Source: a bacterium (GTDB lineage Bacteria > Zhuqueibacterota > Zhuqueibacteria > Residuimicrobiales > Krinioviventaceae). From it: 64,000 nucleotides of DNA. Numbering within the stretch: position 1 is the stretch's first letter; every line of letters begins with the position of its first letter. This document shows positions 33,995 to 60,291 of this stretch, piece by piece. The stretch lies in NCBI GenBank assembly GCA_963693055.1, contig OY843751.1, forward strand, positions 4,096,001 through 4,160,000, in the 5' to 3' direction. The notes under the pieces are model-generated. The model did no database searches, was not told the DNA's origin, and worked only from the letters and a program-made list of their open reading frames with translations. The translations under genes were made by a program, and so were the position numbers.

Positions 33995-34204
33995 TCATTT
34001 CTCCAAATCAGATAACGGTTAATCATTTACAGAAGCTAATTTAACATATATCATAATTCATTACAACGAATAATTTTCTGCTTTTGCGCCGGAACCAACG
34101 GAAATCGGTACAGTTTTTTCTTGATTGCATGGATTCATTTTCATACATTTTCATGTGGGGATATTCCCAAAATCCAAAACAATTTCGAACACACGAGGAA
34201 CACG

Positions 34205-35962: not shown

Positions 35963-36085
35963 TTATTAATTCATGTATTAAATAATTGAGGAGGATGATA
36001 TCTGAATTAGTGCATTAAAAAGTTAAATAAAAGCAATTAACTAATTTTTCACACAAGACTAGACTATTAAAATCAAAGGGATGAG

Positions 36086-38893
36086 ATGAAAAATTTTAAA
36101 ACTGTTGTTTTGACTCTTGTTTTTGCAGTATCCACATTATTCGCAAACCAAAATGCATTTAACCAATTTAAAACTACAAAAGAAAAACTGGGGCAGTTGT
36201 ATAAACAATCCACATTGACAAAAGAAAATACGAACGATATACTGCAATTAAAAAAAGAACTATTTGAATTCAAGAATGAAATCAAGCAGCAGTCTATTGA
36301 TTATCCCAAAACTGTGATTGATCAAGATAGTATGATCAATCTCGGTAATAATTTTATTTTAATAAATTACAAATTATTTGACTATAGTGATGATAGCTAT
36401 AGAATAATTGGTTATATAAAAAGCACATCTGCCACATATTCACAATATGTGAGAATTAATTTTCATCAAAAAAAAGATGGAAACTGGGTAAACTCTGATT
36501 ACACATATATTGATTTTGATACTTATGAATCTTCTGGCATGTTACCCTATTCATTTTCATTTTTTGATACATTTATAGATAAAATAGATTTTGATGAAAT
36601 TGCATTTGATATAGAATATAGCGATAGTAGAGGATTTGAGAAATTTAATTGTGATCAAATATTCACAATAATATCAAATGATATAATTGAAGATGGATAT
36701 ACTGACGATTGGATGGGTTGTCTTGAAAACAATTATAATTATTCTTTTACATTTCCACAAATTTTTGCATGTTTTTTCAAGAATGGATTACTGGTTGAAT
36801 GCGATTATACTTATCTGGATACTGAATGTAATAGCAATCGATCTGTTATCATTTATTACTATACGGATTCTCCAGATGAACGTGAACAGATCACATTAAA
36901 AAATTGCACAGATAAAGCTATTGATTTATCAGGTTGGACATTAGGAAACAGCATAAACAAAAATGCCTTCACAATTCCTCAAAATACAATAATCGGAGCA
37001 GGTGACACAAAACGCTTCACACATTCTCAATTAGGCTTTGAAATACTTGATGACGATGAAGCAATATACTTGAAAGACAATGAAGGAAAAGATGTCTTTA
37101 TTTATGATGATAATTATGATTCCAACATGATGATGCCATATACATCATCCTGTTTTGATTCCTATCTTGATGTTCCAACGGATTATGATGAAGTCAAGTT
37201 TTTAAAAAGTTTCTCGATATATTCATTGGAAGGTTCAGGAAATGTACCCCCCAATATACCCAATTTCGATCAACCATCTTATAATACTAAACAAAGGCAA
37301 GAATTCAATATTGAATTATTTTTAATTGACCTTAATAATGACAACCTAACAGTAGTAATAGATTGGGGAGATGGTTCAACAAATGAGATTTCTTCTGGTC
37401 ATAATTCAAGATCATATCCAAATTTTACACATAATTATTCTCAAGAAGGTCTCTATTATATTAAATGCAAATCCAGTGATGGAGAGTTAGAGTCAGAGTG
37501 GTCTGATGAGATTTTAGTAAATGTTACAGCCATCCAGGAACTCGAAATCCAAAACACCTCAGTAAAACAAGCTATTTATCTAAATACATTTGCAGATACA
37601 TTAACCGCTACAGGTGGTATTCCCCCTTATTCCTGGGAAATAACAGGATCATTACCTCAAGGGCTTGAACTAGATAACGATAATGGTATTTTATATGGTA
37701 AACCTAAAGAATCTGGTGAATATGAAATGATCGTATCTGTATCAGATAACGGTACACCCAGTATATCAAAACAAGAAGATTTTACACTCTTTGTAATCAA
37801 TCATCCTCCTGTAGTGGAAGCAGATACATTAATAACAATTAATGAACATGACTATTTAGACATGGTTATAAACATGTCTGACCTGGACAATAATCCGATC
37901 ATAATTGATCACTCTAATCTGCCTTCATGGGCAACCTACGAAAGCGCACATATTTTTGGTACAATTCCAGAAAGTGCTCAAGACACCTTAATTAAAATAA
38001 TAGCTACGGATAATGAATTGTCAGATACACTGGTTACATTCATTGATATCATACCGGTAAACGACCCGCCACAACTGACATCAGAAAATAATATTTCTAC
38101 TCCTCAGGATACACTTTTTTCATATATAGCAAAAGCAACGGATCCTGAAGATTCATCAATTACATATGTATTTGAAAACCTTCCTTCCTGGTTAACGACA
38201 CAGGACTCTCTTGTTACCGGAATCACACCAATAGGTTCACCAGACACATCATTTACAATAATTGCTTCTGATGGTGAATTATCAGATACACTTTTGGTTA
38301 CAATTCATTTTCAAGAAAATGCTGCACCTCAAATTCAAAACATTAGCAATGTTCAATTTACCAATGATTCCAACTATATTCTTGATTTAGATTCTTGTGC
38401 AACGGATCAAGATCATGATATCGAAGAATTATCCTGGTCTGTGAAAACAATAATAGACCAACTCGTGACTGAAATTGATAATAATATTTTAACCTTGTCA
38501 GCACCAAACTGGACAGGAACAACAAATATAGTTTTAACTGTTAGTGATCCGTTAGGAGCAAAAGACAGTTTAAATATTGATATTGTTGTTACATTTCCCC
38601 TTTCTTTAAATGAAAATGAATCCATACCAAAATCATTTTCTCTAAATGCAAATTATCCCAATCCTTTCAATCCCTCCACCACAATCAGTTATACTGTGGC
38701 GGAGAAAAGCTATGTGCGTTTGGAAATATTTGATATTAACGGCAGGTTGGTCACAACCCTGACCAACGCCGAGCACCAGCCAGGATCATATCATTTGGAA
38801 TGGAATGCCGCCACTCACAGCAGTGGCGTTTACCTCTGTCGCATGACTGCCGGCAGCTATACAAACGTAAGAAAAATGTTGTTGATCAAATAG
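36086..38893 (+). CDS. Secreted lamin-tail + PKD + Ig/cadherin-like repeat protein with T9SS-type C-terminal domain (paralog of the upstream gene)
   Basis: Same N-terminal/LTD/PKD layout plus 'ATGGIPPYSW...GSLPQGL' (He_PIG), 'NLPSWL', 'VNDPPQ' repeats. Confidence 0.85.
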   Translation: MKNFKTVVLTLVFAVSTLFANQNAFNQFKTTKEKLGQLYKQSTLTKENTNDILQLKKELFEFKNEIKQQSIDYPKTVIDQDSMINLGNNFILINYKLFDYSDDSYRIIGYIKSTSATYSQYVRINFHQKKDGNWVNSDYTYIDFDTYESSGMLPYSFSFFDTFIDKIDFDEIAFDIEYSDSRGFEKFNCDQIFTIISNDIIEDGYTDDWMGCLENNYNYSFTFPQIFACFFKNGLLVECDYTYLDTECNSNRSVIIYYYTDSPDEREQITLKNCTDKAIDLSGWTLGNSINKNAFTIPQNTIIGAGDTKRFTHSQLGFEILDDDEAIYLKDNEGKDVFIYDDNYDSNMMMPYTSSCFDSYLDVPTDYDEVKFLKSFSIYSLEGSGNVPPNIPNFDQPSYNTKQRQEFNIELFLIDLNNDNLTVVIDWGDGSTNEISSGHNSRSYPNFTHNYSQEGLYYIKCKSSDGELESEWSDEILVNVTAIQELEIQNTSVKQAIYLNTFADTLTATGGIPPYSWEITGSLPQGLELDNDNGILYGKPKESGEYEMIVSVSDNGTPSISKQEDFTLFVINHPPVVEADTLITINEHDYLDMVINMSDLDNNPIIIDHSNLPSWATYESAHIFGTIPESAQDTLIKIIATDNELSDTLVTFIDIIPVNDPPQLTSENNISTPQDTLFSYIAKATDPEDSSITYVFENLPSWLTTQDSLVTGITPIGSPDTSFTIIASDGELSDTLLVTIHFQENAAPQIQNISNVQFTNDSNYILDLDSCATDQDHDIEELSWSVKTIIDQLVTEIDNNILTLSAPNWTGTTNIVLTVSDPLGAKDSLNIDIVVTFPLSLNENESIPKSFSLNANYPNPFNPSTTISYTVAEKSYVRLEIFDINGRLVTTLTNAEHQPGSYHLEWNAATHSSGVYLCRMTAGSYTNVRKMLLIK

Positions 38894-38924
38894 AATTGAC
38901 TCAAAATTTTATAACATATTTATA

Positions 38925-38951
38925 CTACCGGGAGATCCAATCTCCCGGTAG
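38925..38951. terminator. Hairpin terminating the virion-like operon and the convergent gene
   Basis: ctaccgggagat-cca-atctcccggtag perfect 12-bp stem. Confidence 0.75.
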
Positions 38952-38959
38952 CTTTCTTA

Positions 38960-39235
38960 TCAGTCCTCATCCACATTGGCCAGCGGCACTTTGAACTCGC
39001 CGGCAACGGATTCGATCACGGATTTTACCGCGCTTACGGCGGCATCGTCCAGGTCTGTTCCTGAACGCTCGCTGAGCGGCTCCAGCTCTGCATCCACAAC
39101 AGGATAAAGCGTTGCAAGTGCAACAGCACCATGCTCGGGTTCACGCTCCATCAATGATTGTAAAAGCGGTTTTAATACCTGTTCCAATGCCAGTTTAATT
39201 ACCGGTGCCAGCAAATTCAACAATTGTTCTTTCAT
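38960..39235 (-). CDS. Hypothetical protein, last gene of the virion-like operon (lysis-region position)
   Basis: AAGGGGAG RBS; amphipathic helices with a 'T.LDD' motif reminiscent of small phage lysis-region proteins. Confidence 0.6.
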   Translation of the reverse strand: MKEQLLNLLAPVIKLALEQVLKPLLQSLMEREPEHGAVALATLYPVVDAELEPLSERSGTDLDDAAVSAVKSVIESVAGEFKVPLANVDED

Positions 39236-39303
39236 GTGTTCTCCCCTTTATTGGTTATTTAATCTTTATGAGGATTTATTTCCCCTTGTGAGGTACCCCA
39301 TCA

Positions 39304-39522
39304 TTATTTATGTACCGACTTTAATCTCGTCAGCATCTGCTTTTCTCTTACCAGCGCGTCACCCCCTTCTTTTAACCGGCCCCGCTTTTCACCCAACCCA
39401 AAAGTCATCCACACAAAACCGGCTTTGCACAACCAGGGCGATATCGCTTGTCCCGCCCCCGGAATAAAATTAACCGCTCCCCCCAGACCCAAAAGCAGCA
39501 ATCCCGTCAACGTTTTTGGCAC
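39304..39522 (-). CDS. Small membrane protein, holin-like
   Basis: AGGAGGAG RBS with GTG start; two hydrophobic segments and a basic C-terminus. Confidence 0.5.
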   Translation of the reverse strand: MPKTLTGLLLLGLGGAVNFIPGAGQAISPWLCKAGFVWMTFGLGEKRGRLKEGGDALVREKQMLTRLKSVHK

Positions 39523-39538
39523 ATCTCCTCCTTTCTGT

Positions 39539-39922
39539 TTATTGTTCTACAAATTTCAATTCTATATCCCGTTTGGCCTCATCCAATCCCCCTGCGTAAT
39601 ATTCAGGTATTTCACACGCCATTCTTACAGCAATATTTACAGATTCCCCCTTAACATTGCAATATTGCAACTGCATCAACTCGTCGTTCCCCGCAAGCAT
39701 TGCCAGTTTATCAAGCGTTGATCGTCTTGCGGTCCGAATGGAACAAGTATAAACATCGTATGCCTGTCCATGTCGCAGAATGAATGGCCTGCGATTCTGC
39801 AGCCGTTTCAATGTAAACGGTTGAATGGTTTTGACATTTAGGGACCGTACTTCATCCGAATAAAAAGTTAATGTGACAGCTTCCCCTCCACCGGGCACGG
39901 ATATACACAATGCTTCTGTCAT
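39539..39922 (-). CDS. Putative distal-tail-like protein (paralog of 42918..43301)
   Basis: 127 aa, 'FYSDEVR', C-terminal 'IELKFVE'; ATGA-coupled to the 999-aa gene. Confidence 0.55.
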   Translation of the reverse strand: MTEALCISVPGGGEAVTLTFYSDEVRSLNVKTIQPFTLKRLQNRRPFILRHGQAYDVYTCSIRTARRSTLDKLAMLAGNDELMQLQYCNVKGESVNIAVRMACEIPEYYAGGLDEAKRDIELKFVEQ

Positions 39923-42918
39923 ATTGAAATCTCCTGCTCATGGGTAATATCATATCCTTTCAACAGCACTTCAATCCCATCTGTAAATGATATCTGTTTA
40001 CCGGTAACCCGAATATATCGATCCAATTCAGGTTTTTCACTCTGTACATGCAGCACATCACCAATCTCGATGGGGATTCCCTGCAAGTTCAACCGACACT
40101 GAATCAGCAGTACCCCAAAAGCCCACATTTCATATAATTCCGAGACCAATAATCCAACGGATTCCGATGCAAAATAACCCGGCAGATCAAGTTGAGCGCT
40201 TTGCAGCAAACCGGATTGCAATTGGCTGAAAGGAATATCAGTGGGCCCGGCATATAAAGATCTGAATAAATAGGTGTTGTTATCATAATCATATCCATAA
40301 CGCAATTGCCATAAATTCACCCGTTCCCGCGAACCCATTTCCGGCCCGGGTAATAAATTGGTAACCCCACTTGTATCTACGACTGGTGCCTCACAATGAC
40401 GATGCACAAATAACCGTTCCACACCCCAGTTATCATTAAACAAGAATCCATTCAAATGCTGTGCAACACATTCCAATGCCTGCAAAACAGACATGTCCCG
40501 CTCTAACGATAAACTGATATGTAATCCATTATCCTCGCACCAGAGATATTCACGATCAAAATTATAATTGGGATCCGGAACATTCCGTTTTTTGATATAA
40601 ACATCACTACCACACGTCAATATCTCACCAAAAGGATTATTAACAGATACCCGGATATATGGAGGATATGATGCCTGCACATTGTTGCCAGAGGTAACAA
40701 CAAGCTCCAGCCCCCCAATGATCAAAGTTTCACCGGTTTGGATTTTCACAGGTGCCGTTACCGCAATATTAACATCTGTACTCCCTGCACCAATATCCTC
40801 AGCCAACACTCCAATCTGCTTTCGTTCAAAAAAAGATGAAGCCGCAATTAAATGCCGAGGTGTCTCTGTATGTTCACGTAATAATTGATAAATAACAGTA
40901 ACCGGATTAACATCTACCCAGGTTCTGCCCGTCTTGAATGATACCTTGTCACCGCTTCGGGTGGTTCCGTCCCATGCAGACGGTAGAATACATAGCTGCT
41001 CCCCACCTTGGATCGTATCAAAAGTTAAACCCAGTCTGTAAATCGTCAATCCATCACGTTCCATTATGTATGCATATTCACCATCCATGGCAATGGCATT
41101 GGCATTTCTCAAATAAAAGGGGCCATCCGCTCCGCGTATGGTTTCAATCAACCTGGCATTTAATGGATCAGAAATATCAATAACACTCAATGCATGATTG
41201 ATGGAAGATACACTGAACAACCGATTTCCCTCAATCGTAAACACCATTCCCGAGCTGTACCAGGGGGAGCCGGCACTGCCAAATTCTGTTGCGACAAAGG
41301 GATTTGTAATATCACTGATATCGATCACAAATATTCTACCGTATCGTCCTTTAACAAAAGCATAATTTCCGGAAATTCTCACAGAATAGCCACCCTCTTC
41401 AATGGCAAGTGTAGTTACTAGGACCAGATTTCCCGGTGCGTCAATATCAATGATCACCAAACGATTATCATAACTTGATACCGTCAAAAGATAGTGATCA
41501 ACAATATCAAAATCCCACAAACCCTGCATATAATTTGGCGAACCCACACCACCAAATCTTGATAAATACTGAATATTGAACGGATCATCGACATCGAAAA
41601 CATATATCGTATCCTGTCCCTGTACATATAAAAAATGGCCGTTCAATTTACATTTCACCGCAAAGAAATCTTCCGGAACTCCCTCTGCTCCCGCGGTTTG
41701 GGTGTCAATCAAAACAGGATTATAAGGATCTGAAACATAAAAACACTTAAATTTGCCAACAAACGATCCACTACTGATATCAACATAGGCTACATATACA
41801 TAATTGGATATTTTCTCTACTGCAGCATAAATACAATTATTTGCAAATGAAATAGAAGCACATTGCACTGGATTTGCAGGATCACTCACATCCAGAATAA
41901 CCAGTTTGCCCGTTTCCACAACAGGAATGAATACCCAATCCCGATCTTTAACCAGGTCCCATGCAAAACCCATATCATTTACCGGACCGGTAAACCTCCC
42001 GGTCATTCCATAATATCTGTCATATACACGGCCATCCACTCCGGAACCGGATAATGTATATTTTGTATTTGTAATAAAATCCAGCTGCCATTTACCGGGA
42101 TGGCAGTCCGCTTGTGGGAAAATGGATTCACGCTCCAAATCGCATGATGCGTCATCATTCCAGCAAATGCTGCATGCGCTGGAATGCTCTCCACTCACGC
42201 ACAATAATCGTGATGTTTCGTCCGAATCTACACCCACCAGTGCTCTGTCCAGCTTGCTTTTCCGAGAATCCACCAGAACCATCCGTACTGATCCTGCCAA
42301 AACCTCGGGCACTTTGAGTATCCTTCCCCGGAACAAAACCATGGGCTGCGCTGCCCCTGCAAGATGCAGTCTAACCTGCACCGGCGTATTCTCTGGCATT
42401 TGTGAGAAAAGATAGCCTCCCCTGGGCATATAAAAAGCCAGTGGCTCGGCAAGCGTGATCCTGTCCGTATGATTGTCGGCAGTATAACTCAATATCTCTA
42501 CAATTTGTTGTTTTATCGAACCATAATAATAATCTTCACCATAAAGTACAATACGTTCTCCCTGTGCATAGCTTACACCCGCCTGATGCTGGATCAAAAT
42601 CTCAGAACTCCCGGATTCTGCTGATTCAGCTATAATACTTTTTGCATGATGAAACGGGCTGGCCGGATTTATGGGGGATAGCGAGCCATCTGCATCAGCA
42701 ATCTCGATCTCCACATCCCGTAAAACAGAACGTCCACCCCATTGCGGATCTACATCTCTGCAATTGCTGATTGGACTAATGTTAATGACACTATTTTGAC
42801 CATCAATAACAATATTCCGGTCTTCAGGATCAACCAATAAATCCAAATAATATTGCTGCCCTCCTGCTTTTTCAAGTTCATACTGCCAATCCGCAGGTAA
42901 TGTTTTATAATCCGGCAT
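39919..42918 (-). CDS. Large tail/baseplate-hub-like protein with an inserted LVIVD-repeat beta-propeller
   Basis: LVIVD repeats 'LVILDVSDPANP', 'VFDVDDPFN', 'LVIIDIDAPGN', 'FVIDISDITNP', 'LSVIDISDPLN'; tail-hub-like termini ('VLFRGRI', 'NPVTVIYQLL', 'IEIGDVLHV'). Confidence 0.65.
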   Translation of the reverse strand: MPDYKTLPADWQYELEKAGGQQYYLDLLVDPEDRNIVIDGQNSVINISPISNCRDVDPQWGGRSVLRDVEIEIADADGSLSPINPASPFHHAKSIIAESAESGSSEILIQHQAGVSYAQGERIVLYGEDYYYGSIKQQIVEILSYTADNHTDRITLAEPLAFYMPRGGYLFSQMPENTPVQVRLHLAGAAQPMVLFRGRILKVPEVLAGSVRMVLVDSRKSKLDRALVGVDSDETSRLLCVSGEHSSACSICWNDDASCDLERESIFPQADCHPGKWQLDFITNTKYTLSGSGVDGRVYDRYYGMTGRFTGPVNDMGFAWDLVKDRDWVFIPVVETGKLVILDVSDPANPVQCASISFANNCIYAAVEKISNYVYVAYVDISSGSFVGKFKCFYVSDPYNPVLIDTQTAGAEGVPEDFFAVKCKLNGHFLYVQGQDTIYVFDVDDPFNIQYLSRFGGVGSPNYMQGLWDFDIVDHYLLTVSSYDNRLVIIDIDAPGNLVLVTTLAIEEGGYSVRISGNYAFVKGRYGRIFVIDISDITNPFVATEFGSAGSPWYSSGMVFTIEGNRLFSVSSINHALSVIDISDPLNARLIETIRGADGPFYLRNANAIAMDGEYAYIMERDGLTIYRLGLTFDTIQGGEQLCILPSAWDGTTRSGDKVSFKTGRTWVDVNPVTVIYQLLREHTETPRHLIAASSFFERKQIGVLAEDIGAGSTDVNIAVTAPVKIQTGETLIIGGLELVVTSGNNVQASYPPYIRVSVNNPFGEILTCGSDVYIKKRNVPDPNYNFDREYLWCEDNGLHISLSLERDMSVLQALECVAQHLNGFLFNDNWGVERLFVHRHCEAPVVDTSGVTNLLPGPEMGSRERVNLWQLRYGYDYDNNTYLFRSLYAGPTDIPFSQLQSGLLQSAQLDLPGYFASESVGLLVSELYEMWAFGVLLIQCRLNLQGIPIEIGDVLHVQSEKPELDRYIRVTGKQISFTDGIEVLLKGYDITHEQEISI

Positions 42919-43301
42919 TATTCACACTCCAACAAGGTCAATACGGTTTCTGATTTTGCCGCAGGTTGATGCCCAAACAAAATCGTTTTTTCAAATTCAG
43001 GATACAAGATGCATTTCAGCTCAAAATCAGGATCTTTGATCATGGCATAATGAACTGTCATCACATCCCTGATTGCCGTCAATGTTTTGATACGTTCTGC
43101 TGTATCCGCATGCATATTACAAATACGCATTTGAAGCGTATTCCATACGCCCCCTTCTTTCTCAATACCGGGGACCGTATTGCCATTCACACGGATTTGT
43201 TGAAAACGCAGGGATTGTTTAATCACATCTCGCACTTCATCCCGGTAAAATTGAACAATAGTTTGTCCACTTGCTATCGAAACTGCTACTATCCGGCTCA
43301 T
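42918..43301 (-). CDS. Putative distal-tail-like protein
   Basis: 127 aa, 'FYRDEVR', C-terminal 'LTLLE'; stop overlaps the start of the next gene. Confidence 0.55.
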   Translation of the reverse strand: MSRIVAVSIASGQTIVQFYRDEVRDVIKQSLRFQQIRVNGNTVPGIEKEGGVWNTLQMRICNMHADTAERIKTLTAIRDVMTVHYAMIKDPDFELKCILYPEFEKTILFGHQPAAKSETVLTLLECE

Positions 43302-43471
43302 GAAAATGGACCCTTTGGAGGCTCAAAAAATCGTTCCCGATATTTTATTTGCTGATAAACAACATCATCAATCCATGTCTCCCGTTCACGATCACGTTTT
43401 TGTTTATCGATATCCACCATTCCGGATACAATTGCGGAATCCAGAACCAATGGAGTTAATCTTTTTTGCAC
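43298..43471 (-). CDS. 57-aa ORF missing from the ORF track, at the tape-measure/chaperone position
   Basis: GTG...TGA, MQKRLTPLVLDSAIVSGMVDIDKQKRDRERETWIDDVVYQQIKYRERFFEPPKGPFS; fills the gap exactly and overlaps the next start as ATGA. Confidence 0.6.
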   Translation of the reverse strand: MQKRLTPLVLDSAIVSGMVDIDKQKRDRERETWIDDVVYQQIKYRERFFEPPKGPFS

Positions 43472-43480
43472 ATTCACCCC

Positions 43481-44278
43481 CTATTCTGTAATTAATTTTC
43501 CATATACCACACGAATATCTGCATTTGCTTGCGGTGGTGTATCAAACTGCAGTGTTTGGCCGTTCAACTCTAACCCGTCAGTCACATATCTGCCCCGAGT
43601 ACCTCCCGGCTGCGTAATGACCAGAGCCGCAATTGTAGTATGCGGCCAGCTTTCCGGAATATCAATATCCGCATTCAACAATTCCACAGGTTGCGTGGAT
43701 AGCTGAAATACTGTGGACGTACCATCCCCCGTAAAACGGTCAATTCGTAACTCCAGTCCCGCAGGTATCCGTAAAGGCATCCGGGTTGATGTAAAGGGAA
43801 TATCCATAAAATCACATCCATCAACAACCAACGTCCCCGGGGTGCCAAGCACAATTTCAGGAAATATCATACTACATTTGTGCTGTAACGTATCCGTTCG
43901 ATAAACAGCTTCCAGAGAACCTGCTACTCGCTTGTTCATAACCATAGGGTACAGGGCGGTTCCACTGGCAGCCAGATTCAGTCCGGCAGCCATGGACAAA
44001 AACACATCAGCACAACCTGTCAGCATTCGGATTGATCCCCCAAAAGCGTAATCAAAACCCAGTGGATGTGGCTCTTCATCCTCCACACAAAACACCTGCC
44101 TGACCTCTGCTGGAGTATAGGGCTCTGCTTTCATGCACTCTACTCCCTGCAAATACATTGGAGCAACGGGTAATGCTGCATCTCCGCTAGCTGGATGAAA
44201 TCGCAATAATATATTTTTGCCTTGCAGATATTGCTCTGGTCCTGGTGCCCGTAACCGCTCAGTTAATGACATAATCAT
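43481..44278 (-). CDS. Putative tail-tube-like protein with a C-terminal beta-sandwich extension
   Basis: Position after the neck genes; C-terminal 'FTGDGTSTVFQLS...LQFDTPPQANADIRVVY' module common in phage structural proteins. Confidence 0.5.
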   Translation of the reverse strand: MIMSLTERLRAPGPEQYLQGKNILLRFHPASGDAALPVAPMYLQGVECMKAEPYTPAEVRQVFCVEDEEPHPLGFDYAFGGSIRMLTGCADVFLSMAAGLNLAASGTALYPMVMNKRVAGSLEAVYRTDTLQHKCSMIFPEIVLGTPGTLVVDGCDFMDIPFTSTRMPLRIPAGLELRIDRFTGDGTSTVFQLSTQPVELLNADIDIPESWPHTTIAALVITQPGGTRGRYVTDGLELNGQTLQFDTPPQANADIRVVYGKLITE

Positions 44279-44772
44279 TCCCCCTGCCTGACATTCAATT
44301 CAATCCTGAATTTGCTGTGAATCATATCCCGATTTGCGTTATGCTCACGCACAGGCCCCTCACATTCTTTTACCCGAATTCCCTGGGTTATCAATGTTTG
44401 CGCACTGAGCAAAACTCCTTTTAGCTCTACGTTAAATGTTTGTGTATGCAAGCCAACAGGATCGGTAAAACAGGATAACAACTCGCTCAAAATCACCTGG
44501 TGCTCATCAATCCCCCCGCTTGCGGGATCATTCCACACGCCAATTGTCAACTCGAACAACAATAACGGTTCGCTGCCCAGATAATTCTGTCGTCCGTTCA
44601 AAATCGGTGTATTCACATAAATAACCGGACAATCCACATGGTCCTGAATATTTTTGTGATTGTAGCCGGCTTTAAATCGGCATCCGGCAATTGCTGTATT
44701 TCCTACAGCAAACGCTTTCAATAGCGCCATAAAACAGGATTGTATTTCTATCAAAACTCTGTCTCTATTCAT
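44275..44772 (-). CDS. Putative tail terminator / neck protein
   Basis: Synteny and size; 'PVIYV', 'FELTIGVW' beta motifs; ATG at 44772 after GGAG. Confidence 0.5.
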   Translation of the reverse strand: MNRDRVLIEIQSCFMALLKAFAVGNTAIAGCRFKAGYNHKNIQDHVDCPVIYVNTPILNGRQNYLGSEPLLLFELTIGVWNDPASGGIDEHQVILSELLSCFTDPVGLHTQTFNVELKGVLLSAQTLITQGIRVKECEGPVREHNANRDMIHSKFRIELNVRQGE

Positions 44773-44776
44773 ATGC

Positions 44777-45241
44777 CTACTCCTGACCCTGTATTTGACG
44801 AAGAATTGCAAACTGGGCCACTTTTTCATCCGATGACAAAATCTCACTTTGCTTTAATCGATAGCGGCAGCCATTGTATTCAAAATAATCGTTCAACAGG
44901 TCCAGTGTATTTAAATCCAGAAAAGCACCATCCACTGTATTCACCGTTCCAATGATCATCATGTCTCTGGCAGTTACATTGCCCACAACCTGAAATTGTA
45001 CAAAAGTTTTCACCATGGTATAGTTGAATACAAAGGCCTTGATGGACAATTCAGAAACAACTGTCCCTGTCCGTCCAATACTCTCACAATCCGTATCATC
45101 AGGGTGATTGCGATGCCATTCAGGCGAGTAAACCCCGGTCTTTTCCGTACAGGGACAATCACTGCCGCCCACATGCCGGACCAGTGTCAAGTCGGTACCA
45201 TAACGCAATACATCCTGACAAAATAATTGATGATCAGTCAT
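44777..45241 (-). CDS. Putative head-closure (stopper) protein with a CPC...C motif
   Basis: 'YGTDLTLVR', 'CPC', 'DYFEYNGCRYRL' resemble head-closure proteins; synteny. Confidence 0.55.
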   Translation of the reverse strand: MTDHQLFCQDVLRYGTDLTLVRHVGGSDCPCTEKTGVYSPEWHRNHPDDTDCESIGRTGTVVSELSIKAFVFNYTMVKTFVQFQVVGNVTARDMMIIGTVNTVDGAFLDLNTLDLLNDYFEYNGCRYRLKQSEILSSDEKVAQFAILRQIQGQE

Positions 45242-45647
45242 ATTTGCTTCCCCCAAACGATCCGCTCCACCACGGACCCTGCTCTGAACATCCCAGCAAA
45301 TTCAGATAACGCTGCCATTCCTCCATCAGCGTTTGACAGATTTGTTCCTTTTCTTGTGCGGAAACCGGTTTTATCTCTACAGGACCGCTTTTACTGCCTC
45401 TGACCGGAGCTGAACTGACAACCTTGTGCGCAACAAAAGCAACTTGTGCCGCTTTTGCCAGCACCAACTCTGACGCAGTCAATCCAGACAGTTCCAGTCC
45501 GTTTTTATCCAGAACCAATTCCAGCCAGGCATCCCCCGCTGGAATAAATGCGGTACCCGCAAGTACCTGATCCGACACCTCCAGCTCCGTCATTGTCCGT
45601 AACCTTGCTCTTACATCCGCTGCTGTAATATTTGCCATATTGTTCAC
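45234..45647 (-). CDS. Putative head-tail connector (adaptor) protein
   Basis: Immediately after the major capsid gene; 'ITAADVRARL', helical body with a 'GSKSGPVEI' beta hairpin. Confidence 0.6.
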   Translation of the reverse strand: MNNMANITAADVRARLRTMTELEVSDQVLAGTAFIPAGDAWLELVLDKNGLELSGLTASELVLAKAAQVAFVAHKVVSSAPVRGSKSGPVEIKPVSAQEKEQICQTLMEEWQRYLNLLGCSEQGPWWSGSFGGSKYD

Positions 45648-45660
45648 CTGTATAAATAAT

Positions 45661-45684
45661 AGGGACGGACGACCGACCGTCCCT
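45661..45684 (-). terminator. Hairpin after the major capsid gene (attenuator or mRNA stabiliser)
   Basis: agggacgg-N8-ccgtccct perfect stem with a weak U-tract. Confidence 0.6.
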
Positions 45685-45698
45685 GCAAAATGAAAGGA

Positions 45699-46799
45699 TT
45701 AACTGTGCTCAACCTCAAGACAGCCAATAGCTTGTGGATCGATCACATCAAAAGCGCTTCGTTTCGATACTACGGTTCTGACCTGCTGCTTGGCGATGAT
45801 TCGTTCGGTTTCGGTCAGGTTCATACTGTCATTGGTCACATACCCAATTGCATGTGCGGTATCTACTCCCACCAGTTTGTCCGAAGGAACAATATCCCTG
45901 TCCCATTCCACACCCCGTGGCAGAATCATACCGGTTTGTCCCCATTGCGCAACCGGATTCTGCATATCAGACAATGCATCTCTAAAATCGATCATATTGC
46001 TCTTGCGACCCACAAACGCGTTCAAGGCATATGGCTGCGGCAATGCGGATGCAAAGGTAATGATGTCTTTTTTCACAATACTTCCACTGGTTGCCGTCTG
46101 GCAGGTCTGCTCAGCTTTTAAACCATTATTGTTACCATCACCGTTCAGCAAGGCATTCACAAGCGCGTCCGATTCATCAAGACCAATCTGTTTACCAATT
46201 CGCTGCAATGCAACCGCATAAATGTTGATTGGTGTTGCATAAATCACTTCATAATCGAATAATATATTACGACCAAATTTCGCCAGCGAGATACTCTGTT
46301 TGCCGGCCTTGATCTGGGTCTGTGGAAACTCTGCGCCCCGTGCCGTTTTTTTCAACTCTCGCGATGCCTGACTGTCTTCAAGATACAACTTGCGGAAATC
46401 CAGTCCTGTAATGACCGAAGTCACCGCGGCAAACTCGGGTACAATAGATGCCGCCAAAGCCCCCGCGTAAACGCGATTCGAAATAAATTCCGGAAACAGT
46501 ACGCTGGTATCCGCACTCTGGAAAAACTTTTCCACGCGGTCCGTATGCATACCAAATGCTTTGATATCATGCGCCTGTAATTCCATCTCAAATGCCGACA
46601 ACGGCGGGTCTTCTCCTTTGCGAAGGTATGAGAGCCGCTTTAATTCCTTTTCATAATTGGCAAGCCCCCAATACTCACTAGGCTGCTCACCCTTTTCTAC
46701 GCGGTACTCTTCAAGCCATTCACCAAAGGATTTACCCCGCCGTGCGGCTTCATCGTACATCCCGATTTCAAGTTTTAATGCCATGTAAATTCTCCCCAA
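45699..46799 (-). CDS. Phage major capsid protein (HK97-like fold)
   Basis: 'VEKFFQSADTSVLFPEFI', 'RGAEFP', 'LAKFGRNILFDYE', 'ETERIIAKQ...VVS...F'; position in the head module. Confidence 0.85.
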   Translation of the reverse strand: MGRIYMALKLEIGMYDEAARRGKSFGEWLEEYRVEKGEQPSEYWGLANYEKELKRLSYLRKGEDPPLSAFEMELQAHDIKAFGMHTDRVEKFFQSADTSVLFPEFISNRVYAGALAASIVPEFAAVTSVITGLDFRKLYLEDSQASRELKKTARGAEFPQTQIKAGKQSISLAKFGRNILFDYEVIYATPINIYAVALQRIGKQIGLDESDALVNALLNGDGNNNGLKAEQTCQTATSGSIVKKDIITFASALPQPYALNAFVGRKSNMIDFRDALSDMQNPVAQWGQTGMILPRGVEWDRDIVPSDKLVGVDTAHAIGYVTNDSMNLTETERIIAKQQVRTVVSKRSAFDVIDPQAIGCLEVEHS

Positions 46800-46809
46800 T
46801 TTGATTTAA

Positions 46810-47256
46810 TTAAAACAAAACATCCACAGTTTGTGTGTCCTGATGTTTGGCAACCACGGCTCCCCAGCCGCCGGTGCCGCCATCCGCCATATACGTATAG
46901 TCATCTCCGGCAATCGCTACTGCGTCTTTCAAGCCAACAAGCCCTGAATATTTCAGGCTTTTAACCAGAACAGGTGTATGGTGGCCACCCACATCATCTG
47001 TATAATGGAACATTCTCACACCCAGCAGATACCCAAATTCATTGTCCTTTTCACAGGTAATGATCTCACCATCCGCAACATCGCCGCTTGCAGGACTCGT
47101 GACCTCGTAATTGTTCACCCAGGTCAGTTTTACCAGCCGGCCTTCTACATTTTCATTATTTGCCATCAGAGTGGTAATCTCGTCTTTAAAAGTGCTGTCA
47201 GGCACACAGCTAAGCTCTAAAAAATTACCAGTGTCTCCCCCGCCTATTCCTCTCAT
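46810..47256 (-). CDS. Putative head decoration/cement protein
   Basis: 148-aa beta-rich protein between the protease and capsid genes, ending 'TQTVDVLF'. Confidence 0.6.
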   Translation of the reverse strand: MRGIGGGDTGNFLELSCVPDSTFKDEITTLMANNENVEGRLVKLTWVNNYEVTSPASGDVADGEIITCEKDNEFGYLLGVRMFHYTDDVGGHHTPVLVKSLKYSGLVGLKDAVAIAGDDYTYMADGGTGGWGAVVAKHQDTQTVDVLF

Positions 47257-47277
47257 TATGTTCCTCCTTGATTAAAA

Positions 47278-48450
47278 TTAGGATTGTATGCTGACCGGTG
47301 CCCGAAAAGACCGACTATGCTTTTGGGCCAAATCAGTACTGAATTGATTAAATTCCTGCAAATCCTCTGTCAACATATGTTGATGGGGATGTTTCGCCTC
47401 AAATGCTTTTCTGGAATCCGATACACATTTCTTCAGCTCCTCCAGAGAAAGCGATTCCAGGTTCTGTTTTTCTGCTTCAATATAATCGGGATCATCTCCA
47501 ATCTCCCCAGCCAAACAAGCAAATTTAACCGTCTCTTTGATCAGCGACTGTCTTTCAGGATCATTCATTGGTGTTGCCTTGTCCGGTGTATTTTCTGCAT
47601 CCGTTTTTGTAGCGATTGATTTTCGGGTCCGTGCACCATACTGTGCTCCCAGAAACACATGCGAACCTTCAAGCGCTTCAGCTTCCCGGGTTTCCGTGTT
47701 GCGATATTCCCACCATAAGATCTTGTCCCCATTGCCCGATTTAACCGGTATCAGCTCCGGTGCTCGAAATCCAATACTCATGTCCGAAATAATTCCCGAA
47801 TCGATCTTGCGGATTTTCTCCTCATCATCCGCCAGTAGATAATAACTGGCAACCAGCCAATACAAGCCATTATCTGTTTCCGAGATCTTTTTGTACTGTT
47901 CTTTCAGATCTGCACTGCAATGCGGCCCTGCCAATTTCATCATTTCATCGGCACCAACTTTTTGTAATCGCGATTTAAAATAACGCCCTTCACCGGTTCC
48001 TTCCCAGTCATGCCCGGTCAACACCGCCTTGCCAATGATGGTTTTCTCGAACGATTTTAACACCTCCATGCTGAACCGTTCCCCGTCACGGTCCACAACA
48101 TTGTGACACAGCCAGGCCTCATATACACGAAAATCTTTGCGTTCAAAGGATGATGCATTCACCATCAGCTTACACATTGCATCCCAATCTTCATCACCAA
48201 TCTCTACCGATTTGGTATGAACACTGAAATGTTTCTGTATACCTGCCTGAATGTCAAAAGATTTTACCCGGCTCAATCGATAAAAACGCTGTTCACAATC
48301 TGCCCAGCTCCCATATGCTTTGGCAGGAAACCTTACCTCGGTCCGTCCGGTCTCGGGATGTTTGCGACTATCCAGAAATCCTGCTGGGACCTGTTCAGTC
48401 TCGTCCAAAACGCCATAGTAATACAACCTGCTTTTTCTTAAAAATTGCAT
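47278..48450 (-). CDS. Prohead maturation protease with C-terminal scaffold-like region
   Basis: 'CHNVVDRDGERFS', 'LTGHDW', 'DMSIGF', 'LEGSHVFLGAQYGA' (assemblin/HK97-type His/Ser motifs); helical acidic C-terminus. Confidence 0.8.
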   Translation of the reverse strand: MQFLRKSRLYYYGVLDETEQVPAGFLDSRKHPETGRTEVRFPAKAYGSWADCEQRFYRLSRVKSFDIQAGIQKHFSVHTKSVEIGDEDWDAMCKLMVNASSFERKDFRVYEAWLCHNVVDRDGERFSMEVLKSFEKTIIGKAVLTGHDWEGTGEGRYFKSRLQKVGADEMMKLAGPHCSADLKEQYKKISETDNGLYWLVASYYLLADDEEKIRKIDSGIISDMSIGFRAPELIPVKSGNGDKILWWEYRNTETREAEALEGSHVFLGAQYGARTRKSIATKTDAENTPDKATPMNDPERQSLIKETVKFACLAGEIGDDPDYIEAEKQNLESLSLEELKKCVSDSRKAFEAKHPHQHMLTEDLQEFNQFSTDLAQKHSRSFRAPVSIQS

Positions 48451-48565
48451 ATTCCCTCTTTTATTTATTAAAAATGCGTTAAAACACGTTTCATGCTAAA
48501 TCAATTTTCAATGAATTGGAGTGCATCGCGTTTATGCGCTTGACCGCCTACTGGCGGTATGCGGC

Positions 48566-48685
48566 GTGTCCTAGACTCGCTAAAAGCCACACCTTCCTCT
48601 CCAATCCCATCCAATCCGCAGATGTTTACACAATGTCTAATCTAAAATATCTGCATAAAACGGATGATCAAAGGGTCTAGGACAC
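48566..48685. other. 120-bp structured element bounded by an 11-bp perfect inverted repeat (candidate ncRNA)
   Basis: gtgtcctagac (48566-48576) / gtctaggacac (48675-48685) enclosing inner stems atccg/cggat and gcagat/atctgc. Confidence 0.45.
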
Positions 48686-48695
48686 AATCCCCCAC

Positions 48696-48848
48696 TCAAA
48701 CCGATAAAGATTTTTTCACCTTTCCCTTGACGCCTTCCACCCCCATCTCTTTGAACCGCTGACTCCCATCACCACAATGGATCTTGCCAAATTTCTCCAA
48801 TCGACCGTATTTATTGCCTCTCGGATTAATTACCTTTTGATTTTGCAT
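48696..48848 (-). CDS. 50-aa basic ORF missing from the ORF track, directly after the portal gene
   Basis: AAGGGGA RBS + ATG; MQNQKVINPRGNKYGRLEKFGKIHCGDGSQRFKEMGVEGVKGKVKKSLSV. Confidence 0.45.
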   Translation of the reverse strand: MQNQKVINPRGNKYGRLEKFGKIHCGDGSQRFKEMGVEGVKGKVKKSLSV

Positions 48849-48887
48849 AAAACATCCCCTTGTATAAATGATTATCCCCTTGAACTG

Positions 48888-50249
48888 CTACGAATCTAAC
48901 AGAATCTGTCTTGCTTCTTTAACCGCTCCGTATGCCTTGCTGCCATTGGCAATCCGGTTCAATACCTCTTCTACACGCGTCACCCCCTGTAATGTTTTCC
49001 CCGGAAAAAAAGGACCGTTTCGCACCAGATGCACAAACTCTTCATCATCAATCATCCCCATATCATACATCCGTTCAAAGGCGCCCAACTCTTTATCCAG
49101 CGCTTGTGCGTTCAAGAGTCTTGCACGGGCCTGTTCCGTTTTGTCCATTAGATTGACTTCCCGCCACTCCAGGTCCCACTGTGCCCCTGCTTCGCCCTGC
49201 AGAACCAGAAACGTATTGATCACCCGCCTCAAAATCGGTTCTACCTTGGTCCGGTACGCATTGATATTCGCCACAATCATATCATTCTGGTTGTTACTCA
49301 TGCGCTCGGTTGTGGTCCATTTATACAAGCCAAACATAAATGGCGGCAGCCCGGTCTTGGTAATGATCTCCTCCTGCATCACATGTACCGGTACCTGAAG
49401 ATTTAGCACAGGCTCCTGTCCCCCCAACACCTGCACATCTATCCCGGCACCTTCCGGCACTGCCGCCGCAACATCCCGCACATGCCCCTGTTTGCGGTCC
49501 TGAAAAACACGGGTAATATCGCTTTGTAATCCTTCTGCCGCCTGTTTAACCCGATTAAAATCGCTGCCCCTTCCGCCACTCACTTTGACCAGAAATGTGG
49601 GGTCCCCAACCCGCCATACCTGGTTCTCTATGGCCTGCTGAATGCGTAAAAAAATCTTGACCACAAAGGGCAGCGAGTAAAACAGACTGTACCCCTGCGG
49701 GTGCCCGTCCCGTTGGTCAAAACACAGGTAATAGATAAATTCCGGATCATCAAACGGCAGAATATTCAACTCGGAATCCGTCAACTGTCCCAGTTTCAAC
49801 GTCCCGTCACGCTCCACAAAACGAAAACTGTTGGCGCGCGCAATTTTCAACCGGTCTACACCATTATAATCCGTGTTCGGCACCAATTCTCCGAAACCCA
49901 TGCCTTTTGCCAATGCGGAATCACAAATCTGGTCCACCCAGGTATTCAATCCCCGGTTAAAATGATTGACCTTGACATCCCCTTTGAATGCATTCAGCAG
50001 TTTTTCGATACGTGGATTCGGTGAAGATAACCGAAAATCCCCAATCAAACGCACCAGTTTGATCACCGCCACATCCAGTATCGGTACGGCCTCGCGCATC
50101 AGATCGTATAAATCCATATTGAATTGTAGCGGTTGATATCCCCTCAGCGCAGTCGCAAAAGGCCCCTCCCACGCGTCACGGGTTTGCGCCCGGCTGATCT
50201 TGACCTGCTGTGTATCCTCACCAAACCATACTTTAAACGGATTTTTCAT
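48888..50249 (-). CDS. Phage portal protein
   Basis: 'LYDLMREAVPILDVAV.KLVRLIG', 'GMGFGELV', 'HPQGYSL', 'IITKTGLPPFMFGL...TTERMS'; first gene of the head module. Confidence 0.85.
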   Translation of the reverse strand: MKNPFKVWFGEDTQQVKISRAQTRDAWEGPFATALRGYQPLQFNMDLYDLMREAVPILDVAVIKLVRLIGDFRLSSPNPRIEKLLNAFKGDVKVNHFNRGLNTWVDQICDSALAKGMGFGELVPNTDYNGVDRLKIARANSFRFVERDGTLKLGQLTDSELNILPFDDPEFIYYLCFDQRDGHPQGYSLFYSLPFVVKIFLRIQQAIENQVWRVGDPTFLVKVSGGRGSDFNRVKQAAEGLQSDITRVFQDRKQGHVRDVAAAVPEGAGIDVQVLGGQEPVLNLQVPVHVMQEEIITKTGLPPFMFGLYKWTTTERMSNNQNDMIVANINAYRTKVEPILRRVINTFLVLQGEAGAQWDLEWREVNLMDKTEQARARLLNAQALDKELGAFERMYDMGMIDDEEFVHLVRNGPFFPGKTLQGVTRVEEVLNRIANGSKAYGAVKEARQILLDS

Positions 50250-50356
50250 TTCATCTCCCCTCTGTAAATCACAATCAAAAGATAAACGAAAATCCTGAAA
50301 ATCAAAGCAACATTGGGTAACTTACACAACGCAGAAACAAAAAAAATGCTCCTAAC

Positions 50357-50466
50357 GTAAGGGCGGACCTGTGTGTCCGCCCCAGACACAATCTCAACAC
50401 GATGTAGAGTGTTTCAAATCACCAGCAGCTCTGCCCCTTCGTAAGGGCGGACCTGCGTGTCCGCCC
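50357..50466 (+). repeat. Two REP-like palindromes (GTAAGGGCGGACCTGYGTGTCCGCCC)
   Basis: Direct copies at 50357-50382 and 50441-50466 differing by one base; each has a gggcggac/gtccgccc stem preceded by a GTAG-like GTAA. Confidence 0.75.
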
Positions 50467-50542
50467 TGGTACTACCCACCCTGGTTCCAGGGCTCTGCCC
50501 TGGAATCCTTTTTTCACATAACTACAAATATCAAAAAAATCC

Positions 50543-50605
50543 TTGACAAATGTTCAAAAAATTACTACGTTCATTATAAATGAACATCTAAAAATATTGA
50601 ACATT
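50543..50605 (+). promoter_or_regulatory. Sigma70 promoter with nested inverted-repeat operator for the AbiE operon
   Basis: TTGACA-17bp-TACGTT; IRs gttcatt/aatgaac (50569-50585) and aatgttcaa/ttgaacatt (50549-50605). Confidence 0.65.
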
Positions 50606-51592
50606 ATGCAAAAATTACAACACATCATACAAAACCTGAATACGATCTTTGCCCATGACATAGAACTCAGGCTGGTAGAAAATAATAACTCTCCGCAACT
50701 GGATTTGATCGTCAATCAAAAACCTATACGATTTTCAATCGAATTCAAAACGACTATTAACCGCTCACTGATCACAATATTAAAACATCAAAAGCAGCAA
50801 CACCAAACACCGTTTCTGCTCATAACCCCCTATGTCAATCCCGTTCTGGCAAAAGAATTAAAACAACAGGAAATCCAGTTTATGGATACTGCGGGTAATG
50901 CATATATTAACCAAACACCGCTCTATATTTATATACAGGGCAACAAATTGCCCAATTTACCCAACACCACCACAAGGCGGTTATTCAAACCTGCAGGCCT
51001 CAAAGTCCTCTTTGCCCTTTTGACCGTACCTGAACTAGTGAACAAGCCTTATCGTGAAATAGCAAAAACTGCGCAAGTTTCTTTAGGCACATTAACCTGG
51101 GTAATGAACGATCTTGTTGAATTGGGCTATCTCATTGACCTGGGCAAAAAGGGTAAAAAACTGATCAACATGCAAAGACTAGTGGAAAAATGGTGTTCAG
51201 AATACAATCAGACCCTCAAACCCAGGCTCATAATTGATAGATTCAATGGTCCAGAAAACTGGTGGCAGCAGCTTAATCCGGTTCAACATAATGCACAATG
51301 GGGTGGCGAAGTGGCAGCAGCATTACTGACCCAATATCTGAAACCTGTAAACACCTTGCTGTATCTAAACGACATGAATTACAGCAAGATCATACAACAG
51401 AATCACTTATATCAGGATAAAAATGGGAATACGCTTTTCATCCAGTATCCCATTAACATCCAACCTGTTGATAAAACGGTTCACCCGTTATTAATCTATG
51501 CGGATCTGTTGGATACAACCGATCCCAGAAGTATGGAAACCGCAAAGGTAATCTATGACCAGTACATCGTTCAACTTGTCGGGGAAAATTGA
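50606..51592 (+). CDS. Type IV toxin-antitoxin antitoxin, AbiEi family (wHTH)
   Basis: 'FMDTAGNAYI', wHTH 'YREIAKTAQVSLGT', 'WGGEVAAA.LT.YLKP', 'VHPLLIYADL....DPR..ETA'. Confidence 0.85.
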   Translation: MQKLQHIIQNLNTIFAHDIELRLVENNNSPQLDLIVNQKPIRFSIEFKTTINRSLITILKHQKQQHQTPFLLITPYVNPVLAKELKQQEIQFMDTAGNAYINQTPLYIYIQGNKLPNLPNTTTRRLFKPAGLKVLFALLTVPELVNKPYREIAKTAQVSLGTLTWVMNDLVELGYLIDLGKKGKKLINMQRLVEKWCSEYNQTLKPRLIIDRFNGPENWWQQLNPVQHNAQWGGEVAAALLTQYLKPVNTLLYLNDMNYSKIIQQNHLYQDKNGNTLFIQYPINIQPVDKTVHPLLIYADLLDTTDPRSMETAKVIYDQYIVQLVGEN

Positions 51593-52400: not shown

Positions 52401-52569
52401 CATATGAATATCCCCCTCTTTTCGTACACCCTGCAAAACGTGAATACTTTTACCTGCCAAATCTCACATCAATTCGCAATCATTCTGACAACAATCATTT
52501 TGTTATAAAAAAAAACAGGATGCAAATTATCAGCACCCTGCTTTTCTTGTTGGAACCATGATGTTTCAA

Positions 52570-57239: not shown

Positions 57240-57321
57240 AAACCCACCTGCTGGATTCACAAACATTTCACTATACATAAATATTCAAGAATTTGCAAGC
57301 AGAAATTTAGTTTTCAATACA

Positions 57322-57354
57322 TAAAAAAAGCCGAGCCATAATCGGCCCGACTTT
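57322..57354 (-). terminator. Intrinsic terminator after DUF4956
   Basis: Minus strand: gtcgggcc...ggctcggc followed by T7. Confidence 0.65.
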
Positions 57355-57388
57355 CTCATCATGGGGGGTATGAAATATAAATAATATT

Positions 57389-60095: not shown

Positions 60096-60291
60096 GTAGA
60101 GTTTCAAAATAAAGGCTGCGCAAAAGATATCGGTTATCCGGAACGTTAACCGCATGGAGATCCAGTTCAACATATGGCTCAATAAACGCTTATAGCGCAC
60201 CAATACGCTCTCTGGGAACATAATATTTGATCTCAAATCTGGATATGTGATTTACATTTCCTGCCATTGCATTGTCCTCAACTCATATTAA

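Follow-up and report, generated by a model that had tools for sequence, protein, structure and literature searches.

Gene transfer agents (GTAs) with a known genetic basis are few, and three lineages have been classified in the framework that defines them as viriforms by six criteria, including the packaging of random host DNA and its delivery, and that also asks for experimental support (PMC9662315); telling such agents from decaying prophages is described as a standing obstacle (bioRxiv 10.1101/2024.11.15.623857). The present analysis concerns an operon of phage structural genes at positions 38960-50249 of a 64,000-nucleotide stretch of bacterial DNA (the window; contig OY843751.1, positions 4,096,001 to 4,160,000), part of chromosome C1 of a complete 6.5-Mb KSB1 genome designated G000, together with a second locus on the same chromosome. 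The operon has very probably been domesticated by its host, and we give slightly better than even chances to its being one part of a domesticated phage that is spread over two loci and passed on vertically, likely forming DNA-filled HK97-type heads with a stub tail, damage-inducible and GTA-like.

RcGTA too goes back to a siphophage: it has a head-neck-tube-tip cluster, further genes scattered across the genome and a tape measure that has become shorter, and it is inherited vertically (PMC7296036). For both a short tape measure and periplasmic delivery, RcGTA can serve as a model. The KSB1 system differs from it in several respects: no close sequence relationship was seen, the tape measure has 57-83 amino acids (aa), the structural operon does not include the terminase, neither a fibre nor a tail peptidase was found, and the system has its own CI-type repressor, a YqaJ nuclease and a small terminase subunit (TerS) with a helix-turn-helix (HTH). 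Judged by sequence, it is not a member of the RcGTA family (Rhodogtaviriformidae): its host belongs to KSB1, its nearest relatives are phages of its own family in trees built without RcGTA sequences, and PDB sequence searches gave no match for the capsid profile (threshold E 0.01) or for that of the distal-tail (Dit)-like protein.

The GTA of Faecalibacterium prausnitzii is comparable in that two operons ~125 kb apart and particles of ~40 nm with no visible tail are reported for it; its TerS and large terminase subunit (TerL) are in the head operon and its tail is described as podovirus-like, whereas here the terminase is in the second locus (bioRxiv 10.1101/2024.11.15.623857). PBSX of Bacillus subtilis, cited in the same source, is a defective phage kept by its host that packages DNA; here there is no sheath and no long tail. 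Tai and Tab give tailless phage progeny (PMC11364771), whereas a whole particle pathway, and not a single inhibitor, is encoded here.

No report of a GTA in KSB1, and none on this system, was found in a search of literature that included few subscription papers; a review on Clostridia (PMC10538166) and the R4C paper (PMC10276861) contributed nothing specific. Three of the six criteria can be recognised by sequence, namely particle proteins derived from a Caudoviricete (portal, HK97 capsid, TerL and the tube fold, sequence similarity being sufficient), full endogenisation over several loci (two, with no integrase or replication gene), and vertical inheritance with co-diversification (capsid and TerL trees of 4-7 taxa, dS in the chromosomal range); the system is GTA-like by anatomy and a candidate member of the GTAs. 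It is not an intact temperate prophage, as there is no single block with integrase, att sites, replication module and full tape measure, nor a tailocin or PBSX-like killer, given a 59-aa tape measure, no fibre homologue outside the resident prophage and no sheath-sized open reading frame (ORF) between the neck and tube genes. Capsid-forming phage-inducible chromosomal islands (PICIs) are mobile islands with an integrase, a primase, a capsid and a terminase, and no tail genes; the loci described here have neither integrase nor primase, carry tail-tip genes and are vertically inherited, and do not belong to that class.

The two loci, their phage relative and their descent

The operon consists of 15 co-oriented ORFs on the minus strand, all without internal stops, with readable ribosome-binding sites, ATGA/TAATG coupling and two hairpins, as the first-pass annotation of the window had described; contigs from the same sample span 34000-53500 unbroken and with 0 differences, and they are probably the source DNA itself, hence not independent. 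The same annotation had found no integrase, repressor or replication gene, and none was seen among the operon and the scanned flanking ORFs (29 proteins). Its terms intact and stand-alone, instead, had to be given up: the operon is without terminase, full tape measure, tail chaperone, gp10-like neck, head-morphogenesis and fibre genes, all of which the related resident prophage has, and repressor, terminase and lysozyme are encoded at a second locus whose end is 97.7 kb away. The annotation had thus overlooked the main features, which are the lack of a terminase, the reduction of the tape measure to its C-terminal tip and the second locus.

This second locus (G000:C1:4,032,259-4,037,291) contains the 58%-identical TerL paralogue (C1:4,033,147-4,034,622) retrieved with the prophage TerL as query; its order is CI, divergent from yqaJ, then a 93-aa ORF, terS, terL, a small HTH-like ORF (60-73 aa) and lysozyme. 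CI has an HTH and a peptidase S24 domain, and it retains an Ala-Gly site plus Ser and Lys residues, a layout that we take to be that of RecA-cleavable repressors. TerL (phrog_2, E 4e-31) has intact ATPase and nuclease motifs, which presumably serve these two functions; TerS keeps its N-terminal HTH, and the small ORF after terL has homologues in prophages. The 93-aa ORF (G000:C1:4,035,046-4,035,327, minus strand; L029:13047-13328), between yqaJ and terS, is kept in genomes G001 and G014 and has no PHROG match. Neither the operon nor the second locus holds an integrase or replication gene, and together they span ~114 kb, compared with the 50.6 kb of the resident prophage. The second locus is syntenic in G001, with the two loci ~133 kb apart; in G014 it has a different neighbourhood, with identities of 73% for CI, 60% for YqaJ, 52% for TerS, 71% for TerL, 62% for the small ORF and 57% for lysozyme.

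An apparent absence of terminase by Pfam was rejected: PF03237, PF04466, PF17289 and PF03354 found none in the genome, and these are false negatives as two TerL genes exist, so that Pfam absence is not used as evidence. The TerL family concerned (G000:C1:4,033,147 and 2,868,664) is large, with 2,775 proteins, and was found only by PHROG 2. In G077, of the same class, a terL (51%) with an upstream 212-aa ORF (L042:6654-8949) is not accompanied in 20 kb by any further recognised phage gene; the capsid query used here gave no match in that genome. CI homologues with 42% identity occur within open frames of 387-401 aa in G014 (L267, contig C50) and G005 (L254, contig C79).

The resident prophage is complete and siphovirus-like (G000:C1:2,842,245-2,892,835, 50.6 kb); it sits in tRNA-Pro, with a 47-bp att, and has an integrase (L011-L013, L031, L032). 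It shares the gene order of the operon and 59% identity in the capsid, 58% in TerL and 44% in the portal; the adaptor is 50% and the stopper only 35% identical to the prophage counterparts. What the prophage has and the operon lacks are the integrase and replication region, the genes for head morphogenesis and the gp10-like neck, the two genes at the chaperone position, a tape measure of 1,559 aa and a probable fibre of 753 aa. The same phage family lysogenises G004 and G029, with relatives in IMG/VR; a glycosyltransferase family 9-like gene in the prophage head region is common to many of them. No capsid or TerL of the resident prophage was found in G001, which has one capsid match, one TerL match and no PF10145 tape measure; the system therefore persists without a resident helper of this family.

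Capsid matches occur in 7 of the 167 phylum genomes: four with the reduced operon (G000, G001, G014, G017), two with full prophages (G004, G029) and one with a distant element (G069). In a tree of RpoB+RpoC (28 taxa; RpoC partial in G017), the four carriers and G005 form one clade, with support 1.0, that comprises two KSB1 genera, g1 and g5; within it, the operon is in four of five genomes and the second locus in three, and a metagenomic lineage (L093) has the operon as well. The domesticated capsids form a single clade (0.897), with the resident prophage as sister (0.936), and the TerL clade has support 0.997, its sister relation being poorly supported (0.28); both trees split g1 from g5 as RpoB+RpoC do, a congruence that rests on 4-7 taxa only, and the species-tree agreement that the first reading had proposed as a check is thus found. 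Three additional 491-aa TerL clusters besides that of G014 fall in the domesticated clade, two of them on the g5 side. Searches of IMG/VR (best match 50%) and of GenBank phages (best match 30%) gave no domesticated capsid. Both loci have been kept across the genus split in differing flanking contexts. The split of the operon in G014, with the portal on another contig, is an assembly break, since metagenomic contig L096 has the same genes contiguous; repeat insertions lie between the operon genes of this genome. An empty operon site in G005 could not be shown, most flanking genes not being found there.

One finding that had been named as a reason to abandon domestication needs comment. The rest of a prophage (repressor, terminase and lysis genes) is literally displaced elsewhere in the genome, but the conservation of this second locus alongside the operon is the pattern of a GTA and no refutation. 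The resemblance to a cluster of Clostridia that the first-pass annotation had mentioned holds only as a distant likeness: capsids of Oscillospiraceae and Acutalibacteraceae clusters are 28-33% identical and are an outgroup to the domesticated clade, whereas the nearest relative is in the same genome. Three such loci (L063, L065, L067; metagenome-assembled genomes of Acutalibacteraceae and Ruminococcus) are compact portal-protease-capsid clusters with ~ten small downstream genes, capsids of 30-33% identity and no tape-measure-sized ORF within 10 kb; they possibly represent a separate domestication of a distant relative.

Selection was estimated by pairwise Nei-Gojobori comparison of G000 and G001, with 80 background genes (131 ORFs, 86 paired, 6 dropped at <70% identity; median dN/dS 0.095, median dS 0.445), bearing in mind that dN/dS of short genes is noisy. 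All 21 genes of both loci have dN/dS <0.5, with CI at 0.014, capsid 0.018, portal 0.030, TerS 0.044, YqaJ 0.062, TerL 0.072, adaptor and stopper at 0.13-0.16 and lysozyme at 0.27; the capsid is below all 80 background genes. dS is 0.09-0.67 for 20 of the 21 genes, around the chromosomal median, and 1.28 for the 51-codon miniature tape measure. Between genera the capsid is 83-84% identical, above all 84 background pairs of G014 (median 54%). The head and packaging machine is held tightly and the tail loosely, yet not neutrally.

In five lineages the portal gene is preceded by an invariant TGTGTAA-N-TTACCCAA-NN-TTGCTT, and TATCTT follows after 20 nt; the 21 specified operator positions are unchanged although synonymous sites are near saturation. 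The operator has one exact match in the 6.5-Mb genome, the next best having 4 mismatches; the pattern occurs in 4 of the 167 phylum genomes and in 0 reversed controls, a count that is circular for those four as the pattern derives from their loci. No copy with <=2 mismatches is present in the resident prophage or the second locus, and a generic promoter scan did no better than shuffles (28 vs 24.9 sites). Since the usual -35/-10 spacing in this genome is 17 nt, the 20-nt gap points to a poor true -35 and a likely need for an activator, and the presence of just one site in each genome speaks for a dedicated regulator, for which the small HTH-like ORF after terL is the best candidate on sequence grounds. 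A conserved TTGACT box within the CI-yqaJ interval may be a promoter guarded by CI. REP-like GGCGGACAC..GGTCCGCCC repeats occupy window positions 50340-50500, just upstream of the operator, with more copies in G001.

Vertical inheritance, purifying selection, the conserved promoter motif and the lack of integrase and replication genes together give good support to host-maintained domestication, as the first-pass annotation had proposed.

The miniature tape measure

Profiles of the chaperone, gp10-like neck, head-morphogenesis, full tape measure protein (TMP) and fibre genes, run against 5,669 ORFs of the genome, matched only the prophage, except for one weak TMP match (E 0.002), and a PF10145 search found no tape measure in G001, G014 or G017. 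In the place of the tape measure, the operon has a 59-aa ORF, with orthologues of 57, 75, 75 and 83 aa in the other lineages. A profile of four orthologues matches prophage TMPs over their final ~60 residues (E 6e-8, 0.008), and the related phages whose C-terminal tips are matched have TMPs of 1,091-1,653 aa; the reverse profile, of seven phage TMP tips, finds three g5-type miniature proteins with E 7e-7 to 4e-6 and two g1 ones with 0.06 and 0.18, and all five outscore every unrelated ORF of the genome. Among related loci, 35 of the 115 listed were mapped, chosen as the closest and the longest; in the phage group with 31-62% capsid identity, all mapped relatives with the tube-to-tip interval present have chaperone-position genes and a long tape measure, of 1,091-1,681 aa in eight and cut by contig ends in others. 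By its sequence, then, the 59-aa ORF is a tape measure reduced from ~1,560 aa to its C-terminal tip.

In lambda, the C-terminal TMP helix is reported to occupy the lumen of the tail tip (PMC10721106), and in RcGTA a TMP of ~216 residues (113+83+20) is described as spanning five tube rings (PMC7296036). Scaled on these, a TMP of ~60 residues would leave room for about zero to two tube rings, so that almost tailless, DNA-filled particles are likely. The [QHV]QG motif at the tip of the long hairpin of the tube protein is present in 11 of 13 phage tubes and in none of the five domesticated ones; its loss agrees with a stub tail, if the loop serves in ring stacking as we infer from RcGTA. The second Dit-like gene of G017 is followed by one of 88 aa (L017:4476-4742), which stands at the position of the 85-aa pre-fibre gene of the prophage; it has no homologue at the G000 operon, and tail loss may still be ongoing.

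Proposed mechanism and competing explanations

In the mechanism that we propose, DNA damage would lead to RecA-driven cleavage of CI, whose removal would allow expression of yqaJ-terS-terL-HTH-lysozyme; the HTH-like protein would then bind the unique operator and switch on the structural operon in trans. TerS and TerL would load the heads with chromosomal DNA, as no excising genome is available, while the TMP tip would plug the tail tip. Lysozyme, perhaps with the 72-aa protein as holin, would release the particles, and DNA would reach the periplasm of the recipient and enter through ComEC and DprA as in RcGTA. Of the 19 family genomes, all have ComEC and 18 have DprA; this would allow an RcGTA-type uptake, but as both genes are near-universal it is weak support. 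The more specific history, with chances somewhat short of even, is that the ancestor of the two KSB1 genera domesticated a long-tailed phage, which became an almost tailless GTA by deletion of the chaperones and of ~96% of the tape measure gene, giving a new GTA lineage whose parent family is still in the same genome. It includes a plug of 57-83 residues, shorter than that of RcGTA, and a dedicated damage-inducible repressor-activator switch, a combination that we advance tentatively.

Several points weigh against this account. Particles, packaged DNA and gene transfer are predicted from genes alone. The tail genes are the least constrained, with dN/dS of 0.17 for the hub, 0.19 for the terminator, 0.20 for the tube, 0.24 for the miniature TMP and 0.24 and 0.40 for the Dit-like proteins, values found in only the highest 5% of the background. 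Between genera, the stopper, terminator, tube and tip genes are 32-48% identical, at the 4th-25th percentile. The strong constraint on TerS, with its HTH, means that packaging may start at a pac site and not at random; in the Faecalibacterium GTA, TerS is instead reported to be without a DNA-binding domain (bioRxiv 10.1101/2024.11.15.623857). No fibre and no tail peptidase were found, the fibre profile matching only the prophage, and the hydrophobic segment of the prophage TMP is absent from the miniature one, which makes DNA delivery doubtful. The HTH call on the small ORF comes from weak PDB matches (E 0.14 and 0.019). Lastly, searches of G017 (95% complete, 180 contigs) did not find the second locus, and those of G005 (96% complete, 230 contigs) found neither locus, nor most of the G014 flanking genes.

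Some of these features would suit other roles. The domesticated proteins could mix into the assembly of related temperate phages, the TMP tip capping tails and capsid or portal spoiling heads, with non-infective progeny as the result. Interference with tail assembly is a described defence strategy (PMC11364771), the sister of the capsid is in a prophage of the same genome, whose family is also in G004 and G029, and an AbiE pair flanks the operon in g1. Yet one or two genes would suffice for it, whereas the full head pathway, intact TerL motifs, lysozyme and repressor have all been kept; moreover, an apparently intact prophage of the same family lives in G000, and in g5 no AbiE pair was seen next to the operon, all of which makes this explanation unlikely. 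DNA-filled particles or programmed lysis without gene transfer, as a PBSX-like killer, a decoy or protected DNA serving as nutrient or matrix, would agree with head, portal, terminase and repressor being much more constrained than the delivery parts, with the lack of a fibre and of the TMP membrane segment, and with PBSX itself, reported to package DNA without injecting it (bioRxiv 10.1101/2024.11.15.623857). Killing tails, however, need a long tube or a sheath, both missing here, and the intactness of all tail-tip ORFs and of the TMP tip motif across two genera suggests a closed, attachable tip; we rate a role without transfer as improbable.

The gradient of constraint, which declines from capsid and portal to adaptor and stopper and then to terminator, tube and tip, would also be expected if DNA-filled heads took full tails from co-infecting phages of the ancestral family while their own tail genes faded. 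Capsid-forming PICIs pick up tails from phages, and the adaptor is 50% identical to that of the prophage. The stopper, however, is only 35% identical, the dN/dS of the tail genes is still far under 1 and all their frames are unbroken in the five lineages, and G001 has no resident helper of this family, so that such borrowing has, in our estimate, only a small chance of being right. Slow decay of a defective prophage remnant with no host function is largely refuted and very improbable: it would account for the many lost virion genes, the narrow range (4 of 167 phylum genomes), the negative result in G005 and the repeat insertions in G014, but not for a capsid more conserved than every background gene in either comparison, an invariant operator, or two loci that outlast the genus split in different flanks; how decay appears in this genome can be seen from the degraded operon elsewhere in the window. 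The domesticated, GTA-like particle remains the reading that we favour.

Gene inventory, surroundings and significance

The features of the operon are collected in the table.

Table. Features of the operon and its borders, in window coordinates
Feature	Position	Strand	Basis
Operator-like near-palindrome TGTGTAA-N-TTACCCA, then TTGCTT, 20 nt, TATCTT	50279..50328	-	predicted activator-dependent promoter
Portal, 453 aa	48888..50249	-	phrog_30703 E 8e-67; dN/dS 0.030
50-aa ORF, no assigned function	48696..48848	-	similar stretch in genus g5 by eye; dN/dS 0.45
Probable prohead protease/scaffold, 390 aa	47278..48450	-	position; weak matches NF045541 (E 0.005), phrog_617 (E 0.015)
148-aa protein preceding capsid gene, likely head decoration/auxiliary	46810..47256	-	position only
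HK97-type major capsid protein, 361 aa	45699..46784	-	PF05065 E 4e-13; TIGR01554
Hairpin after capsid gene	45661..45684	-	
Likely head-tail adaptor, 134 aa	45234..45638	-	position, synteny with related phages; no library match
Likely stopper/head-closure protein, 154 aa	44777..45241	-	position, synteny; no useful library match
Likely tail terminator, 165 aa	44275..44772	-	position, synteny; dN/dS 0.19
Tail tube protein, 263 aa, two domains	43481..44272	-	predicted fold and Foldseek
Miniature tape measure protein, 59 aa, own ribosome-binding site	43298..43477	-	profile matches to phage TMP C-terminal tip
127-aa tail-tip protein, likely Dit-like	42918..43301	-	post-TMP position in related phages
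Likely baseplate hub/tail-tip protein, 999 aa	39919..42918	-	PF08309; phrog_1082 E 0.004
127-aa paralogue of Dit-like protein	39539..39922	-	
72-aa protein, one moderately hydrophobic stretch	39304..39522	-	Kyte-Doolittle 19-mer maximum 1.58
91-aa conserved protein, no assigned function	38960..39235	-	no library match
Terminal 12-bp hairpin	38925..38951		

Regarding the single proteins, the protease/scaffold is 50% identical to its homologue in the resident prophage, and the 148-aa protein has 24 homologues among related loci and no useful library match. The model of the tube protein (pLDDT 82) matched lambda gpV, R4C and other tube-fold proteins in Foldseek (E 7e-5 to 1e-3); for the first Dit-like protein the top Atlas cluster was 'Phage tail protein family' (0.95), of low recognition value. 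The 999-aa hub protein has an LVIVD beta-propeller inserted at about residues 320-630, which is its best conserved part between genera and a candidate receptor-binding domain; in the model the propeller was predicted confidently, the hub parts had pLDDT <50, and the fold search gave generic propellers. The 72-aa protein, whose role as holin is a guess, is 62-63% identical between genera (dN/dS 0.10), and the 91-aa protein 66% (dN/dS 0.053).

The earlier statement that ordinary host genes lie on both sides needs correction for the right-hand neighbour, which is a type IV toxin-antitoxin pair and not housekeeping: AbiEi/AbiEii (window 50543-52400) stands beside the portal promoter in G000 and G001. 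On the other side (window 34121-38893), secreted LTD/PKD proteins with a Por secretion C-terminal domain are encoded in tandem; the second member differs in G001, which shows turnover of this flank next to an operon that persists. Beside the portal of G014 (L055:422-8975, contig C4) are a tandem array of five secreted proteins with Gln/Asn/Ser repeats and three neighbours that are conserved, with homologues at G000:C1:1.43 Mb; we take them to resemble curli subunit and secretion genes. The operon noted at 57-61 kb is indeed decaying: it is a DUF4956-containing operon (window 56649-61421) in shortened ORFs, with a DDE transposase inside (58684-59958), and the G001 orthologues are longer.

In conclusion, the complete 50.6-kb prophage and its domesticated relative form a clean before-and-after pair in one genome, in which each lost gene can be identified. 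The miniature tape measure offers a natural test of the minimal length of a siphophage tail and of the need for a tape measure in DNA delivery, as well as a searchable signature of domesticated particles that tape-measure profiles miss.

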